64,000 nucleotides of DNA. Origin: Parcubacteria group bacterium (GTDB lineage Bacteria > Patescibacteriota > Minisyncoccia > Moranbacterales > UBA2206). This document shows positions 3,775-58,537 of this stretch, piece after piece; the first letter of the stretch is position 1, and the number at the start of each line of letters is the position of its first letter. Position numbers and translations under genes: made by a program. The notes below the pieces were generated by a model, which worked only from the letters and a program-made list of their open reading frames with translations, did no database searches and was not told the DNA's origin. Location of the stretch: assembly GCA_041661275.1 (NCBI GenBank), contig JBAZUU010000004.1, positions 71,480 through 135,479 of the forward strand. Direction: 5' to 3'.

Positions 3775-3795
3775 TTGTTTGAAGATTTTAATTTG

Positions 3796-3869
3796 TGGGC
3801 GTATCTGGACTCGAACCAGAGACCTCGTCATTATCAGTGACGCGCTCTAACCAACTGAGCTATACGCCC
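3796..3869 (-). tRNA. tRNA-Ile (anticodon GAT)
   Basis: rc reads gggcgta/tagctcagttggttagagc/gcgtca-ctgataa-tgacg/aggtc/tctggttcgagtccaga/tacgccc. Cloverleaf is complete. No CCA is encoded. Confidence 0.85.
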
Positions 3870-3874
3870 GAATG

Positions 3875-3947
3875 TGGACTGTGCCGGACTCGAACCGGCC
3901 GCCTCCTGCGTGCAAAGCAGGCGCTCTACCAGATGAGCTAACAGCCC
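3875..3947 (-). tRNA. tRNA-Ala (anticodon TGC) with G3:U70
   Basis: rc reads gggctgt ta gctcatctggtagagc g cctgc tttgcac gcagg aggcg gccggttcgagtccggc acagtcc a. The G3:U70 Ala identity pair is present. Confidence 0.85.
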
Positions 3948-37283: not shown

Positions 37284-38075
37284 TCAGAGCGGCTCCAGCA
37301 TCTCCAATAATGCTTGGACTGCCGGTTCGTCCGAGCGCGGAAGGGCAAAGTATATCGCTTCGCCCTTGAATATTTTTACCGCGAGGGAATACGTTACTAC
37401 CTTTCCCTCAAGAAATTTTCTATCCTCCTTATCCCACTGGAGAGGGATAAAGCATTTTTTGATAACCGGGGATTTTTTGTTAAAGGTCCACAGTATCATA
37501 TCCCCAGTATCTTCAAAGAGAATAACTGCGCGTCTTTCGCGGTCGTCGTAGCTATCCTGTGTTTGAGCAAGAATCGGTGTCGCCAGGAAAAGAAAGCAGA
37601 TGAGAACAGTAAGTTTTGTTACAACCCTTTGCGAAAGTCGCAAGACGTTGCAATTCTCTTTTGCTTCCGCTTCCTCCAGAGTACGATTTTCCTCGTCCAT
37701 TTTTCGGCCGAAAGTTTCAAAGTCCTGGAGCTCGTAGATACCTACGGGATCACTTTCTTTTTTTCGGTTACTGAAATAGATCGAAAGGGAAATTGCGGTG
37801 AGAACCATCAGTGTGAGCAGGACATTTGGCAGTATGGATATTAGCTTATTCACTGCCAATTTTAATGCCAAACCGATAGGCTCGAAAGCGTTAATGAAAT
37901 CGCTGACGACCTGTTTTTCAACAGGCATTGTTGATATTTCAGTTCCTGTTGCATGAACCACCCATGGAAGAATTAAAAAAAGCAGGCCAACCAGTGTTAC
38001 AAAAATTATGATTTTCACCCAGTAGGGCACAAAATAACACTTAAGTTCTCCATTCTTGGAAATTAATGTGATCAT
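37284..38075 (-). CDS. Hypothetical membrane protein (263 aa, three or more TM segments)
   Basis: Clean ORF followed on the minus strand by an intrinsic terminator (ccccgttcgc ttcttg gcgaatgggg + U-run) that includes the G10 tract at 37271-37283. Confidence 0.5.
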   Translation of the reverse strand: MITLISKNGELKCYFVPYWVKIIIFVTLVGLLFLILPWVVHATGTEISTMPVEKQVVSDFINAFEPIGLALKLAVNKLISILPNVLLTLMVLTAISLSIYFSNRKKESDPVGIYELQDFETFGRKMDEENRTLEEAEAKENCNVLRLSQRVVTKLTVLICFLFLATPILAQTQDSYDDRERRAVILFEDTGDMILWTFNKKSPVIKKCFIPLQWDKEDRKFLEGKVVTYSLAVKIFKGEAIYFALPRSDEPAVQALLEMLEPL

Positions 38076-51172: not shown

Positions 51173-52441
51173 ATGAAACATATCGAACTTCTGGCTCCGG
51201 CAGGAGATTTGGATAAATTAAAATACGCCATAGAATACGGCGCGGATGCTATCTATTTTGGCGTGCCGGATTTTTCACTGCGGGCGCGGATAAATAAATT
51301 CAGCGAAAAAACTTTGAAAGAAGGCGTGGAATACGCGCATGCGAAAAAGAAAAAAGTTTATGTAACGCTAAATATCTATGCCCACAACAGGCATATGCTA
51401 GCAATTGAAAGGCATTTGAAGTTTTTACATCCACTGAAAATTGATGGCGTGATTGTAAGCGATCCGGGAATAATGAGCCTAGTGAAAAAACATTTGCCGC
51501 ACGTGGACATCCATCTTTCTACGCAAGCCAATACTACAAACTGGCAGGCGGTAAAATTTTGGAAAGAGCAGGGAGTAAAAAGGATAATTTTAGCGCGGGA
51601 AGTGACACTTTCTGAAATAAAAGAAATCAGAAAAAAAGTGCCAAATATCGAACTGGAATATTTTGTTCATGGGGCGATGTGTATGAGCTATTCCGGACGA
51701 TGCATTCTTTCCAAATGGATGACAAGCCGCAGTGCGAATCTTGGAGATTGTTCGCAACCTTGCCGGTGGAAATATGGGGCAGTGAACAGTGATCAAGGAT
51801 CAATGAACAAAAAAGAGTTAAGGATAAGAGATGATCAGAAAAGATATGAAATGAATATTGAAGAGGATCAGCACGGGACGTATTTTTTCAATAGCTATGA
51901 CATGAATCTCATAGAACACGTGAAAGATCTGATTGATGTCGGCGTAACCAGTCTCAAAATTGAAGGGCGGGCGAAAAGCGTATATTATGTTGCGGTGGTA
52001 ACGCGAGCGTATAGAAAGGTGATTGACACAGTAGAGACGCAAAATTTTGCGTCTGTACAAAAAATAATTTCCGAGCAAAAAAAGGAACTGGATAAATTGA
52101 CTAACCGCGGATATTCCAAAGGATTTTTGTTAGGCGCTGAACCACCGCATGATTTTTCTGACCGGATGAGAATCGCTGATTTTAGTTTTGTGGGAGAAAT
52201 TATTGGAGATTGGGAAAATGAGGGAAATAAGGGAAATTCGGTCAGGGTGCACAATACTCTATTTAAAAAAGATAAATTGGAGGCAATTACGCCTTCTGGA
52301 AATTTTAGGATAAAAATTAAGGAGGTGTTAAACTTTGAGGGAAAAAAAGTAACCGAGGCGCACGGTGGAACGGACAAAACTTTTTATATAAAATTTAATA
52401 AGCTTTTGGAAAAGGGGAATATTATCAGAAAAATCGGTTAG
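51173..52441 (+). CDS. Peptidase U32 family protein (YhbU/RlhA-like)
   Basis: MKHIELLAPAGDLDKLKYAIEYGADAIYFG...LNIYAHNRHM...FVHGAMCMSYSGRCILS. U32 consensus. Confidence 0.85.
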   Translation: MKHIELLAPAGDLDKLKYAIEYGADAIYFGVPDFSLRARINKFSEKTLKEGVEYAHAKKKKVYVTLNIYAHNRHMLAIERHLKFLHPLKIDGVIVSDPGIMSLVKKHLPHVDIHLSTQANTTNWQAVKFWKEQGVKRIILAREVTLSEIKEIRKKVPNIELEYFVHGAMCMSYSGRCILSKWMTSRSANLGDCSQPCRWKYGAVNSDQGSMNKKELRIRDDQKRYEMNIEEDQHGTYFFNSYDMNLIEHVKDLIDVGVTSLKIEGRAKSVYYVAVVTRAYRKVIDTVETQNFASVQKIISEQKKELDKLTNRGYSKGFLLGAEPPHDFSDRMRIADFSFVGEIIGDWENEGNKGNSVRVHNTLFKKDKLEAITPSGNFRIKIKEVLNFEGKKVTEAHGGTDKTFYIKFNKLLEKGNIIRKIG

Positions 52442-52490
52442 AAAAGTTGTCCACAGTCGGCGTTTTTCAACATTGACAAAAAGTATTTTT

Positions 52491-52860
52491 TCGTGTATAA
52501 ATAAACCAAAAAGCGGTGTCTCTAATCATGGAGGGGTGGAATGCAGACTTCCGGCTTTTCCTAGGGTGTTTTGACCGACATCCAAGATATTCAAACATCA
52601 ACCGACGTAGCTGGTGAGTATAATGCCCAGCGCCCGGCGTTAATATAACGACCGGATCGGACGGAACCCGCTCCACTTTAAAGGGGGCAAAATGAAAGCT
52701 AGAGACCGGCCTTAGCTCTTTCGAGAGACCAAAAGGTCTCTCACGCCCAATCCCCGGGGATAATAATTTCTATTCAGAATAAGCAATCTTACACCTGCAT
52801 CACAAGCTCATTCCCGGGGCTTGTTTTTTTATTTCAAAACATTGACTAAAAGCCGAATCC
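52491..52860 (+). promoter_or_regulatory. Candidate structured RNA / long leader upstream of GlyRS (promoter + GC-rich ~330 nt + weak terminator)
   Basis: ttgaca-17-tataaa promoter at 52491-52519. Multiple GC hairpins follow (gagagaccaaaaggtctctc, tccccgggga). caagctcattcccggggcttg + T7 lies at ~52815-52845. Confidence 0.3.
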
Positions 52861-52894
52861 GCGGTATATTTCATTATATTTAAAGCAAAATATT

Positions 52895-54292
52895 ATGAGT
52901 AAAAAAGATCTAACTATGGAAAAAATTGTGTCGTTGTGCAAGAGAAGAGGGTTTGTCTATCCATCTTCCGAAATTTATGGAGGACTGGCGGCTATTTATG
53001 ATTATGGCCATTACGGAATTCTCCTCAAGAATAATATTGCCAATGCCTGGTGGAAGCATATGGTTCAGTTTCGAGATGATGTTGTCGGTCTAGATTCGGC
53101 TATCTTTATGCATCCGACAACGTGGGTAGCGTCAGGTCATGTCGGAGGGTTCAACGACCCACAAGTGGATTGTCGAAAATGCAAAAACCGTTTTCGCGCC
53201 GACCATATTTTAGAAGAATTTGGAATTAGCGCTGACAAAGCGACATTAGAATTTTTGAATGAACAGTTGGATAAATTACGAGAAGAAAAAAAATTGAAGT
53301 GTCCGGTTTGCGGCTCAACTGACCTGACTCCGGCCAAAACTTTTTCTTTGATGGTGAAATCAAATGTTGGTTCGCCGACAGACGAACTCAAAGAAGAAAA
53401 TGTCGTCTATCTTCGTCCGGAAACGTGCGGTGGAATATATTTGGAATATAAAAATACAGTAGATTCATTGCATATGAAATTGCCGTTCGGAATTGCCCAA
53501 GTAGGAAAAGCTTTTAGAAATGAAATTGTGGCTCGCCAATTTATCCTGCGAACAAGGGAATTTGAGCAGATGGAAATGCAATATTTCTTGCATCCGTCTA
53601 TCATGAAAGAAAAATATGACGAATGGAAAGAAACTCGCTGGGAATGGTATTTGGAATATGGAATTGGAAAAGATGAATTGCGCTGGTATAAGCACGAAAA
53701 ATTAGCTCACTATGCTTCGGAAGCTTATGACATCGAATTTGATTTTAGCTCTCTTGGCGGATTCAAAGAAGTGGAAGGAATTCATGCCAGAGGAGATTGG
53801 GATCTTTCTCAACACTCAAAGTTTTCTGGTGTAGATCTAAGTTATTTTGATGAAAAGACCCAGGAACGATTCACTCCGCACATCATGGAAACTTCCGTTG
53901 GGCTCAACCGCTTGCTATATATGTTCATAGATCATTCCTACACGGAAGAGGAAGTAAACGGAGAAACGAGAGTAGTTTTGAAATTTGATAAGCGCCTGGC
54001 TCCAGTGAAGGTAGCTGTTTTGCCACTTTCTAAAAAAGAAGAATTGCAAAAAGTAGCCAAAGACATCTGGAATGATCTGAAATTATCTTTTATGGCTGAA
54101 TATGATGACACGCAATCTATCGGCAAGCGTTATCGTCGTCAGGACGAGATCGGCACGCCATATTGTGTGACGGTAGATTTTGACACTCTGACTGATAATT
54201 CTGTCACGGTTCGTGATAGAGATAGTATGAAGCAGGAAAGAATAAAGATTAATGAGCTGGAAAAGTATTTAGAAGAGAAACTAGCTGAATAA
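52895..54292 (+). CDS. glyQS: Glycyl-tRNA synthetase, dimeric archaeal/eukaryal-like type
   Basis: Class II motif 1/2/3 arrangement with an anticodon-binding C-terminus. 465 aa. Confidence 0.9.
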   Translation: MSKKDLTMEKIVSLCKRRGFVYPSSEIYGGLAAIYDYGHYGILLKNNIANAWWKHMVQFRDDVVGLDSAIFMHPTTWVASGHVGGFNDPQVDCRKCKNRFRADHILEEFGISADKATLEFLNEQLDKLREEKKLKCPVCGSTDLTPAKTFSLMVKSNVGSPTDELKEENVVYLRPETCGGIYLEYKNTVDSLHMKLPFGIAQVGKAFRNEIVARQFILRTREFEQMEMQYFLHPSIMKEKYDEWKETRWEWYLEYGIGKDELRWYKHEKLAHYASEAYDIEFDFSSLGGFKEVEGIHARGDWDLSQHSKFSGVDLSYFDEKTQERFTPHIMETSVGLNRLLYMFIDHSYTEEEVNGETRVVLKFDKRLAPVKVAVLPLSKKEELQKVAKDIWNDLKLSFMAEYDDTQSIGKRYRRQDEIGTPYCVTVDFDTLTDNSVTVRDRDSMKQERIKINELEKYLEEKLAE

Positions 54293-54382
54293 TTTTTTGA
54301 AAAATTGAATATCTTTTATAGAGACGCCCTGCCATGGCGTCTCTACTTTTCGGCTCTTTAATATTTAGTGTGTGCTTTTTAA

Positions 54383-54525
54383 CCGTCATTCTGAGCGGAA
54401 TCGAGTCCGTTTAGGACGAGATGAAGTCGAAGAATCTACTTTATGGCTAAACCAGGCAATATTATTGAGTAGATCCTTCGACTGCGTTCTTCCGCTAACG
54501 CGGAATCACTTCGCTCAGGATGACG
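54383..54525. repeat. Family-A MITE-like repeat, copy 5
   Basis: ccgtcattctgagcggaatcgagtccgtttaggacgagatgaagtcgaagaatct...agatccttcgactgcgttcttccgctaacgcggaatcacttcgctcaggatgacg. Confidence 0.7.
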
Positions 54526-54687
54526 AGCTTATATGGTCCAGTGTAAAACCTCGTTAAATGGCTTAACAAAAATAATTTTTAAACTTATCCACCACACTAA
54601 TTATTATAGAGCCTACTTTTCTTGCCAATTGAGCCAAAATATAGTAGGCTGAAGTGTGGTATTATTAATATAACCAACAATAATGTG

Positions 54688-54739
54688 CCCTCTCTGTCAC
54701 GATAGGAATCGTGACATCTCTCCCGGAGGGAGAGAGGGA
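54688..54739. repeat. Family-B palindromic element upstream of the NIF3 gene
   Basis: ccctctctgtcacgataggaatcgtgacatctctcccggagggagagaggg. Same architecture as the first hairpin at 14294. Confidence 0.5.
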
Positions 54740-54741
54740 TA

Positions 54742-55704
54742 ATGAAAAACTCTATGACTATTCAAGAAATTTATAAACTGGCCTTAGAAATGGGCATGAA
54801 GAGCGATTTTCGGTCAAAAAAGGAAATTGCCGAATATTTGAAATTGAAAAAGGAAGAATATGACGCTTTGCCGAAAGACGAAAAACAATATTTCGACAAA
54901 GAAAAATTGACTAATCCATATTCTGATACGCGAATTCATTTTGATTCTGGCAAAAAAAATATTAAAAGAATTTTTGCGTCGATTGATGTGACGCCTGGAT
55001 CGATCTATATTGCCGAAGAACTACATGCAGATCTCATCATCAATCATCATCCGGTTGGACTGGCCTTGGCTGGACTTGATGATGTTATGAACTATCAAGT
55101 GGATCAGATGGAAAAAGTTGGTGTGCCAATTGCTATTGCCGAAAAACTAATTCACAAGAGAATTTCCGAGGTGGCACGCGGAATAAACCCCATTAATCAT
55201 TATGAACCGGTAGATGCAGCCAGAGTTATGAAGATTAGTCTTATCAATATTCATACACCAGGAGATAATTTTGCTGCGCAATTTGTTTTAGAAAAAATCA
55301 AAAAAGCCCAACCAAGATATGTGAAAGATATTTTGAAAGCGCTTATGGAAATTCCGGAATATCAAGAAGCAACAAAACAAGGAAGTGGGCCAATGCTTTT
55401 TTCGGGCGCTAAAAATAATCGCTGTGGACGAGTTGTAGTATCAGAATTTGCCGGAGGAACAGACGGGTCAAAAGAAATCTATCAAGCAATGGCCAATGCT
55501 GGTGTGGGAACAATCATTTCCATGCATCAGAGCGAAGATCACCGGAAAGCGGCTGAAGAGGCGCATATCAATGTCGTTGTGTCTGGGCATATTTCATCTG
55601 ATTCTTTGGGCATGAATTTGTTTTTGGATAAATTAGAAAAAAAGGGAATGGAAATCGTGCCGTTTGGAGGACTCATTAGAGTTAGCAGAAATAAGAAAAA
55701 ATAA
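54742..55704 (+). CDS. NIF3-family (YqfO-like) dinuclear-metal-centre protein
   Basis: ADLIINHHP and the C-terminal VVVSGHISSDSLGMN match the NIF3 signatures. Confidence 0.8.
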   Translation: MKNSMTIQEIYKLALEMGMKSDFRSKKEIAEYLKLKKEEYDALPKDEKQYFDKEKLTNPYSDTRIHFDSGKKNIKRIFASIDVTPGSIYIAEELHADLIINHHPVGLALAGLDDVMNYQVDQMEKVGVPIAIAEKLIHKRISEVARGINPINHYEPVDAARVMKISLINIHTPGDNFAAQFVLEKIKKAQPRYVKDILKALMEIPEYQEATKQGSGPMLFSGAKNNRCGRVVVSEFAGGTDGSKEIYQAMANAGVGTIISMHQSEDHRKAAEEAHINVVVSGHISSDSLGMNLFLDKLEKKGMEIVPFGGLIRVSRNKKK

Positions 55705-58060: not shown

Positions 58061-58537
58061 TTATTTTATAAAAAGTATTATAATAGCCGCGACGGAAATT
58101 ATGAAGTCATTGGCAAAATTACGAAAGCTCCATTCCCGGAGCTTGGAGTTTTTGGGAATTTTGTTATAGCGATGGGCGAAATAATTAAAATCCCGGAGTT
58201 TTATAAAAACAGGATTTTCGGGAAAAACCTTATAGAGAAAAGTAAAAAGGTCAGGAAGGAGCGAGAAAGTGACTCCCAAAAGAATATTGTTAGAAATTCC
58301 GTCATAATTCATAAAAAGATAAACCAGAGAAGCGGTGATGGCCATAGCGGCCATAAAATCCAGAAGGACTTTCCAGGCAGAACTCCTCATGTTATTTTTC
58401 CGGTCATCCCAATAGTCGCCGTGCCTCAAACTATCCATTGCGTAATGCATAGTTAGCGACAGGATTATTATAAGCCATGGATTTGATACATTTTTTCCGA
58501 TAACTGCTCCGACCAGAGCATGAGTAGGTAGAATCAT
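58061..58537 (-). CDS. Hypothetical membrane protein (possibly YdjM/DUF457-like)
   Basis: MILPTHALVGAVIG N-terminus and 4 predicted TM segments. A MITE copy lies directly upstream of its start. Confidence 0.45.
   Translation of the reverse strand: MILPTHALVGAVIGKNVSNPWLIIILSLTMHYAMDSLRHGDYWDDRKNNMRSSAWKVLLDFMAAMAITASLVYLFMNYDGISNNILLGVTFSLLPDLFTFLYKVFPENPVFIKLRDFNYFAHRYNKIPKNSKLREWSFRNFANDFIISVAAIIILFIK

Follow-up and report, generated by a model that had tools for sequence, protein, structure and literature searches.

A self-contained transcription unit with two putative seven-codon mini-ORFs upstream of glyS in a Patescibacteria genome

The GC-rich stretch between a U32 peptidase gene and the GlyRS gene (glyS) in a genome of the Patescibacteria (candidate phyla radiation) is a self-contained unit in which a sigma-70-type promoter and an intrinsic terminator bound an RNA of ~320 nt, and it is separate from the promoter of glyS. 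Judged from comparison with homologous loci, what is conserved in this element is not a large fold, but two seven-codon mini-ORFs (uORF1 and uORF2), each led by a Shine-Dalgarno (SD) sequence. We established the anatomy of the element, its independent promoter and terminator, the conservation of both mini-ORFs and of a hairpin that sequesters the second SD, and the lack of a match to known RNA families. With a probability of about 0.4, we propose a ribosome-sensing regulatory RNA of the leader-peptide type, arranged in tandem ahead of glyS. All positions refer to the window, that is the whole stretch of 64,000 nucleotides that was analysed, and all features of the element lie on the + strand.

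Results

The element is separated from glyS by a second promoter

The element is flanked by the U32 peptidase gene (51173-52441) upstream and glyS (52895-54292) downstream, and the wider neighbourhood comprises genes for TGT, U32 peptidase, GlyRS, NIF3 and M16 peptidases. The promoter of the unit, P1 (52473-52502), could be read directly from the sequence, with the -35 box TTGACA at 52473-52478, a 17-nt spacer and the -10 box TATAAA at 52496-52501, and the consensus-like TTGACA-17-TATAAA promoter of the original prediction is therefore present at 52473-52501. The -10 region can alternatively be read as an extended -10, TGTATAAAT (TGT-ATAAAT). Transcription from P1 is predicted to start at ~52508-52512. 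The promoter scanner omitted P1 in the window because TATAAA does not have the required T at position 6; it did list P1 in the homologous loci described below (TTGACA-16-TAAAAT in L087, TTGACA-18-AAAAAT in L091 and TTGACA-17-TAAGAT in L095), and the P1 block is alignable across the window, L087 and L091. The GC content over 52500-52799 is 0.49-0.50, compared to 0.32-0.35 in the flanks and ~0.40 in the neighbouring genes, in agreement with the higher GC noticed before.

The unit ends in an intrinsic terminator (52802-52831) with an 8-bp stem ACAAGCUC/GGGCUUGU (stem-loop 52802-52824), a 7-nt loop and T7, which confirms the caagc-loop-gcttg end that had been pointed out. Its distance from GlyRS had been given as about 50 nt, whereas the glyS ATG at 52895 lies 63 nt past the T-run. 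Strong terminators were also found in L087 (2131-2164) and L095 (2245-2280), and one was located by eye in L091 (~2213-2262). Outside the unit, and forming its boundary, lies the promoter of glyS, P2 (52842-52870; TTGACT-17-TATATT), ~25 nt before the glyS ATG. A TTGACT-17 promoter also precedes the T-box leader of glyS in L087, L091 and L095 (found by the scanner) and in L081 and L090 (found by eye). Since the terminator is separated from glyS by this second promoter, and in relatives by a complete T-box leader as well, the element is its own transcription unit and neither the 5' UTR of glyS nor a T-box variant. Of the two options that had been offered, an unusually long leader or an independent ncRNA, the position of P2 speaks for an independent RNA and against a long glyS leader. 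A gene on the minus strand was rejected, because no promoter or terminator was found there and all conserved signals are on the + strand.

The start of GlyRS itself can be read in two ways. In an identical Logan contig GlyRS is called from the second Met (52916; MEKIVSL..., 458 aa) instead of 52895; neither start has an SD, and most relatives are called from the upstream Met. Downstream of glyS, the 449-nt gap before the NIF3 gene (54293-54741) does not contain the 93-aa lipoprotein-like ORF of relatives. Found there instead are a terminator and, at ~54383-54540, a long imperfect inverted repeat, GTCATTCTGAGCGGAATCG ... CGCTCAGGATGAC. A similar word, CGCTCAGAATGACG, is located just upstream of the ORF ending at 58537, which suggests a dispersed repeat. 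Elsewhere, the pair tRNA-Ile(GAU) and tRNA-Ala(UGC) (3795-3947, - strand) corresponds to the usual content of a 16S-23S spacer; no rRNA match was found anywhere in the 64-kb window.

Homologous units are present in close relatives

The GlyRS of the window is 74-75% identical to those of the best species-representative genomes, labelled Uhrbacteria, Nealsonbacteria and the like, and 80-94% identical to many metagenomic proteins, of which the named ones are mostly labelled Moranbacteria. Homologues of the element were sought on contigs that encode close GlyRS relatives, and the resulting comparison rests on four lineages, three of them close. One contig, L089, is identical to the window. Beyond it, three homologues were found in close Moranbacteria-like relatives with 85-92% identical GlyRS. 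In L087 (GlyRS 92% identical), the 710-nt gap from the U32 peptidase gene to glyS contains, in this order, a terminator, P1 (TTGACA-16-TAAAAT), a homologous RNA of ~240 nt, a 12-bp terminator of which the T-run abuts the -35 box of P2 (TTGACT-17-TATAAT), the T-box leader and glyS. The same layout was found in L091-L094 (GlyRS 89%), with an RNA of ~440 nt and loss of the U32 peptidase gene, and a unit of this layout is also present in the sister lineage L095 (GlyRS 85%). In all of L087, L091 and L095, a separate second promoter and a genuine T-box thus lie downstream of the homologous unit.

Some features are restricted to single loci. In L091 a 75-77-aa ORF (1158-1790) replaces the lost U32 peptidase gene, with the element still beside glyS; the element there carries ~240 extra nt with several hairpins and a small ORF (MSSGGTEKK, TAG stop) without an SD. 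L095 has a tandem direct repeat, TTTTTTTCRCTTGCACGRT x2, at ~2143-2187 that is missing from the other homologues.

Other relatives have a different arrangement upstream of glyS. In L081/82 (GlyRS 92%) only the T-box and no element was found, L090 (GlyRS 93%) has a T-box just upstream of which the contig ends, and L083, L084 and L088 (GlyRS 90-91%) have neither element nor T-box in gaps of 35-58 nt. In two close contigs from JGI sample 3300075153 (GlyRS 93-94% identical), the gaps upstream of glyS, known by size alone, are 690-730 nt. In the GlyRS tree, the element-bearing lineages fall at the base of the P0001-P0010 clade, within it and in its sister lineage, which indicates that the unit was ancestral there, was retained, and was lost several times. 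Moreover, changes of the upstream gene have not separated the element from glyS: L091 no longer has the U32 peptidase gene, and the P0003 contig (730-nt gap) has PGK as the upstream gene.

More distant copies were not detected. Searches of the element with blastn and nhmmer against 80 GlyRS loci of species-representative genomes (closest GlyRS 75% identical) gave no homologue, and pattern scans and a GlyRS scan of viral contigs gave nothing relevant. A spurious 89-aa minus-strand ORF called in L092, which was used as a protein proxy for finding more copies, returned only itself.

Two seven-codon mini-ORFs are led by SD sequences

In an alignment of the window with L087 and L091 (mean column identity 63%), the conserved blocks correspond to two mini-ORFs, with a divergent, indel-rich spacer between them. 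The first, uORF1 (52541-52564; ATG CAG ACT TCC GGC TTT TCC TAG), would encode the seven residues MQTSGFS. Its SD (SD1, GGAGGGG, 52530-52536) lies 4 nt ahead of the ATG, and GGAGG is found at the same place in L087, L091 and L095. The layout of GGAGG, 4-6 nt, ATG and in-frame TAG is kept in four of four lineages. The putative peptides of the homologues are MNVCNGC (L087), MNTWPGK (L091) and MSWCYPTGFA (L095), all followed by a TAG stop. The peptide itself is hence not conserved; what is kept is the length class, the SD, the ATG, the TAG and a single GGY codon. In L095, where the end of uORF1 is homologous (GGYUUUKCCUAGG), the ORF is 9 nt longer and in frame, so that the length differences are multiples of three. 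Exactly one GGY glycine codon is present 2-3 codons before the stop in all four related lineages, at a background Gly frequency of 7%. This codon is always GGC or GGU, the pair that matches the GGC specifier of the local T-box, while the commonest Gly codon is GGA. A hairpin follows immediately after the uORF1 stop.

The second mini-ORF, uORF2 (52692-52715; ATG AAA GCT AGA GAC CGG CCT TAG), also has seven codons, would encode M-K-A-R-D-R-P and forms the conserved core of the element. A purine-rich SD (SD2, AGGGGG or AGGAGAG) is followed by 4 nt and the start codon. Its homologues read MKARDPPS with a TGA stop in L087 and TTG-KARDHP with a TAG stop in L091, so that M-K-A-R-D-x-P is common to the window and both homologues, whereas identity in the flanking spacer is only about one half. 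The differences in codons 1-7 are ATG/TTG, GCT/GCC, GAC/GAT, codon 6 and CCT/CCG, and only residue 6 varies. Four of the six variable sites are at third positions, all four synonymous, and TTG in place of ATG is still a start codon; the chance of at least four of six at third positions is p ~0.1 in a simple binomial, with four lineages of which three are close relatives. A start codon followed by the K-A-R-D pattern occurs nowhere else on the two strands of 686 kb (window plus loci). uORF2 is absent from L095, which does have uORF1.

According to the original prediction, no ORF in the region has a convincing SD. This did not hold: GGAGGGG and AGGGGG each precede a seven-codon ORF by 4 nt, and both are conserved in the homologues. 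About 6 of 50 long ORFs in the window carry an SD-like motif at most 20 nt upstream of the start, and most have A/T-rich leaders. As most genes of the genome have no SD, two strong SDs at the correct spacing stand out. A few window ORFs do have very strong SDs, for instance 37284-38075 (- strand) and 54742-55704. When we looked for similar units of SD and mini-ORF elsewhere in the window, only the ends of small real ORFs were found.

Several other readings of the mini-ORFs were dropped. The frames of uORF1 and uORF2 agree in L087 only, and one long ORF with UAG read-through was therefore rejected. In the window, uORF2 is the last ORF before the terminator. A remnant of rpmE (MKAGIHP...) or of the rpmH N-terminus was likewise rejected for uORF2, with no similarity past residue 7 in any frame. 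Finally, a microcin C-type heptapeptide gene (mccA) does not fit, as the peptides end in Pro or Ser and not in Asn, and no MccB (ThiF-like) gene is adjacent.

SD2 is predicted to be sequestered in a shared hairpin

In the window, GCUCC (52670-52674) can pair with GGGGC (52684-52688) in a local hairpin (52670-52688) that sequesters SD2 (AAGGGGG, 52681-52687). SD2 forms the 3' strand of such a hairpin in L087 (GGCUUUC/GAGAGCC) and L091 (GGCUU-UUC/GGAGAGCC) as well, with one compensatory change and two one-sided compatible changes between the window and these two. A consensus fold of the homologues with RNAalifold, which had been proposed along with the original prediction, recovered this shared hairpin and an enclosing helix in which UxUGGC pairs with codons 3-4 of uORF2 (GCCAGA); the resulting two-tier stem would lock SD2 and the first codons of uORF2. 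The covariation term of this fold, on the other hand, was just -0.22 kcal/mol for three sequences, and several of the proposed pairs are broken in one of the three. Between uORF1 and this stem lies a GC-rich spacer with local hairpins (52565-52669), which differs in sequence and in length (~105-125 nt) among the homologues.

Downstream, codons 4-5 of uORF2 (AGAG, 52701-52704) can pair with CUCU directly after the stop (52716-52719) in hairpin H3 (52701-52719), for which equivalents were read from the sequences of L087 (AGAGA/UCUCU) and L091 (CAGAGA/UUUCUG). H3 is mutually exclusive with CUCU-UUCG-AGAG (52716-52727) and with hairpin A (52723-52742; GAGAGACC-AAAA-GGUCUCUC), so that 52701-52742 can be read as a 1:2 / 2:3 / 3:4 set of competing helices. 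Hairpin A has no U-tail and is therefore not a terminator. Hairpin B (52750-52761; AUCC-CCGG-GGAU) is followed by a U-rich stretch. Hairpins A and B are the two that had been named before, and both are present.

The region had also been described as structured, and this part was borne out in terms of its hairpins and less so in terms of its energy. The fold energy exceeds that of shuffled sequences modestly and without preference for the sense strand (z = -2.07 on the + strand and -2.40 on the - strand), and the z-scores of the elements are ~ -2 to -2.7. By thermodynamics alone the description is weakly supported; conservation in relatives indicates more than chance. We also considered a relay model, with SD2 being freed by ribosome stalling on uORF1. 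Masking of uORF1 in silico left the accessibility of SD2 unchanged in all three RNAs, and this model was rejected.

The element matches no known RNA family

With Rfam at gathering thresholds, only two tRNAs were found in the whole window, and ARAGORN likewise reported two tRNAs and no tmRNA. At E<=10, a search of 52350-52950 on both strands gave nothing beyond a chance microRNA match, and the elements of L087 and L091 gave no family match, apart from the downstream T-box and chance microRNA-level matches. The Infernal/Rfam search thus agrees with the view that no known family is represented on either strand. The statement that the region does not show the T-box sequence was also correct: the T-box model RF00230 has no match in 52350-52950 at E<=10, and the window itself has no T-box, while in L087 (29.3 bits) and L091 (30.7 bits) the model picked up a real T-box that lies downstream of the element's homologue. 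The idea of a decayed duplicate T-box was rejected, since five local T-box leaders, combined into an nhmmer profile, did not match any of the four elements at E<=100. The loose resemblance to the RNase P P4 motif that had been seen on the opposite strand was not substantiated by an Rfam match on either strand.

The T-box leaders of glyS in the relatives are very compact (L081 2330-2480, L087 2195-2410, L090 205-365, L091 2290-2450 and L095 2325-2480). Their stem I consists only of UUCCGG/CCGGAA with a 10-nt loop, AGAUUGGCGC, that holds the GGC specifier. They score 29-31 bits compared to the Rfam gathering score of 93, so that standard annotation would miss them.

Discussion

The logic of the element, by analogy, resembles that of known leader-peptide and arrest-peptide switches. 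Three points are inferred here: translation of the mini-ORFs, a change of the fold by ribosome occupancy, and glyS as the target. In such a mechanism, ribosomes would load and pause on the mini-ORFs and melt H3, after which downstream segments (in the window AGAG, CUCU, GAGAGACC and GGUCUCUC) would re-pair. In uORF2, pausing might take place at K-A-R or Pro-stop, and the Gly codon of uORF1 may be a further site. The re-pairing would then set how much of the transcription from P1 ends at the terminator and how much continues into glyS (in relatives, into the T-box-glyS unit). This reading accounts for the conservation of SD-led mini-ORFs, of which uORF2 is conserved at the peptide level, for the sequestration of SD2, for a hairpin (H3) that a translating ribosome must melt, for the place that the unit keeps beside glyS and for a uORF1 codon that follows the T-box specifier although GGA is commonest.

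Several observations argue against it. P2 after the terminator, with its -35 box abutting the T-run in L087, looks like the insulation of an independent gene, and each terminator is strong and complete in itself; in L087, a ribosome on the uORF2 stop codon would only reach the edge of the terminator and not invade it. Masking of uORF1 did not free SD2, and one Gly codon is a weak sensor compared to those of classical attenuators. L095 has uORF1 and no uORF2, and close relatives have the T-box only (L081) or neither element nor T-box (L083, L084 and L088). In addition, the block AUGAAAGCYAGAGAYC could be an RNA motif within the shared stem, and with four lineages, three of them close, codon-level statistics are weak.

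In leader-peptide attenuators of amino-acid and aminoacyl-tRNA synthetase operons (the trpL type, including the pheM leader of E. coli pheST), an SD-led short ORF with a cognate codon near its stop is combined with competing hairpins and an intrinsic terminator. The element shares with them an SD-led short ORF before an aminoacyl-tRNA synthetase gene, competing hairpins, a terminator and a cognate codon few codons before the stop. It differs in having one Gly codon instead of a run, in its second, peptide-conserved mini-ORF and in the lack of sequence homology. Moreover, the terminator of an attenuator lies directly before the regulated gene, whereas here an independent promoter (and in relatives the T-box too) lies between terminator and glyS in every lineage.

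Drug-inducible arrest leaders can be equally short, as in ermDL (minimal MRLR), cat-86 (MVKTD), cmlA (MSTSKNAD) and msrDL (MYLIFM). Like these, the element has ORFs of at most eight codons and, in uORF2, a conserved peptide sequence rather than a conserved length. K-A-R fits the macrolide '+x+' arrest motif, and stalling would free a re-pairing segment by the 1:2, 2:3, 3:4 logic of 52701-52742. Unlike in the erm, cat and msr systems, there is no resistance gene and no downstream ORF with a released ribosome-binding site: the element ends in a terminator, and the neighbours encode U32 peptidase, GlyRS, NIF3 and M16 peptidases. A further parallel is TnaC, a peptide of 24 residues ending in ...D-H-R-P-stop, which stalls at Pro-stop, needs Trp12 and Asp16 and acts on Rho. 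The C-terminus of uORF2 is similar in the window (D-R-P-stop) and in L091 (D-H-P-stop), and termination is slow at x-Pro-stop, so that a ribosome can be kept beside a downstream signal. uORF2 differs from TnaC in its seven codons, in its association with an intrinsic terminator instead of Rho and in the P-P-S-UGA end of L087.

The leader of Salmonella mgtCBR contains two short ORFs, mgtM and mgtP, in ~300 nt contiguous with the operon, and senses ATP and proline-charged tRNA. Two mini-ORFs in one long leader-like RNA, each adjoining alternative stem-loops, are also seen in the element; the mgtCBR leader is contiguous with its operon, shows no homology and belongs to another phylum. The glyQS T-box (RF00230), finally, resembles the element in its position upstream of a GlyRS gene, its terminal intrinsic terminator and a GGC word. 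Membership in this class was rejected, as the covariance model does not match the element, in which both the T-box sequence and the UGGN bulge are missing.

A different explanation, which we consider possible but on balance unlikely, is a stand-alone small gene unconnected with glyS. It could be a dual-function sRNA, a micropeptide gene for MKARDxP and perhaps the uORF1 peptide, or a ribosome-titrating RNA, and its position would be inherited gene order. A strong promoter and terminator of its own right before an independent glyS promoter are what such a gene would have, as is a conserved uORF2 peptide, and the patchy presence among relatives with 89-94% identical GlyRS is expected for an accessory gene. 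However, the neighbours include no export, modification or partner gene, a ribosome-binding site buried in a hairpin is odd for peptide production, and neither the window nor any fetched locus has an antisense match to the conserved block. The persistence of the unit beside glyS through upstream rearrangements also speaks against this explanation.

It is rather improbable that the element is a purely structural ncRNA of an undescribed class, in which the SD-like runs are helix strands, the mini-ORFs are incidental and AUGAAAGCYAGAGAYC is an internal-loop motif that binds protein or RNA. The best-conserved segment is indeed the shared two-tier stem, with conserved unpaired AAC and UGAAA; C/U differences are neutral opposite G too, and both the raised GC content and the z-scores would suit a folded RNA. 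Yet the low covariation term, the pairs broken in one of three sequences and a sense-strand fold energy no better than that of the antisense strand do not favour it. It would also leave unexplained why SD1, AUG and an in-frame UAG are kept in four lineages with a 9-nt in-frame length change, and why Pro7, which follows a variable codon, is retained through a CCU/CCG change.

Decayed leader or gene-start sequence, left as a non-functional remnant between the U32 peptidase gene and glyS, is a very improbable source of the element. The variable length of ~240-440 nt, the poor conservation of much of the spacer and tail and the absence from several close relatives would be in line with decay. Against this, the promoter, both SDs, both mini-ORFs and the terminator were kept where the spacer diverged to ~50% identity, and the element was present before the P0001-P0010 clade split.

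That the element is a divergent member of a known family missed by the models (T-box, RNase P RNA, tmRNA or cobalamin riboswitch) is already largely refuted and hardly credible: by eye, AAGCYAGAGAYC is similar to a B12 box and to AAGCCAGAUGGAAUC of the local T-box, GAUGAAAGCC to RNase P CR-I and CCCGCUCCA to the 3' end of tRNA-Gly, but Rfam at E<=10 gave no family on either strand in the window, L087 and L091, tmRNA was found by neither ARAGORN nor Rfam, the five-leader profile did not match, and relatives have a genuine T-box downstream of the element. The individual words also have other readings. The CR-I/CR-V-like words are in reversed order for RNase P RNA, the B12-box-like word is uORF2 coding sequence, and CCCGCUCCA with a 5' GCGG forms only 4 bp and is the anti-SD strand. 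Words seen by eye in L087 only (a hammerhead CUGAUGA, a K-turn or C-box and the 16S 3'-end-like GAUCCUCCUU) were dropped.

Returning to the leader-peptide-type, ribosome-sensing reading, a more far-reaching form of it would be a new class of ribosome-sensing RNA in candidate-phyla-radiation bacteria. Such an RNA would combine an arrest-type M-K-A-R-D-x-P with a glycine-codon mini-ORF, report translation status and gate transcription into glyS, in tandem with the T-box or replacing it; the signal could be Gly-tRNA supply, release-factor activity or a ribosome-targeting antibiotic. We offer this form tentatively and regard it as quite unlikely.

Our literature search for such an element returned nothing, and we know of no described counterpart to the combination of two heptapeptide ORFs and an own terminator right before a second promoter and T-box in this phylum. 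To our knowledge, gene regulation in candidate-phyla-radiation bacteria is almost unexplored. As their genomes are small and compact, it is improbable that a conserved non-protein unit of 240-440 nt with a strong promoter of its own has no role. For annotation this means that 'no ORF' calls on GC-rich intergenic RNA can overlook functional seven-codon ORFs. If the mini-ORFs are translated, they would be among the shortest conserved peptide-coding features known, and leader-peptide logic and a T-box riboswitch would stand in tandem before one aminoacyl-tRNA synthetase gene.
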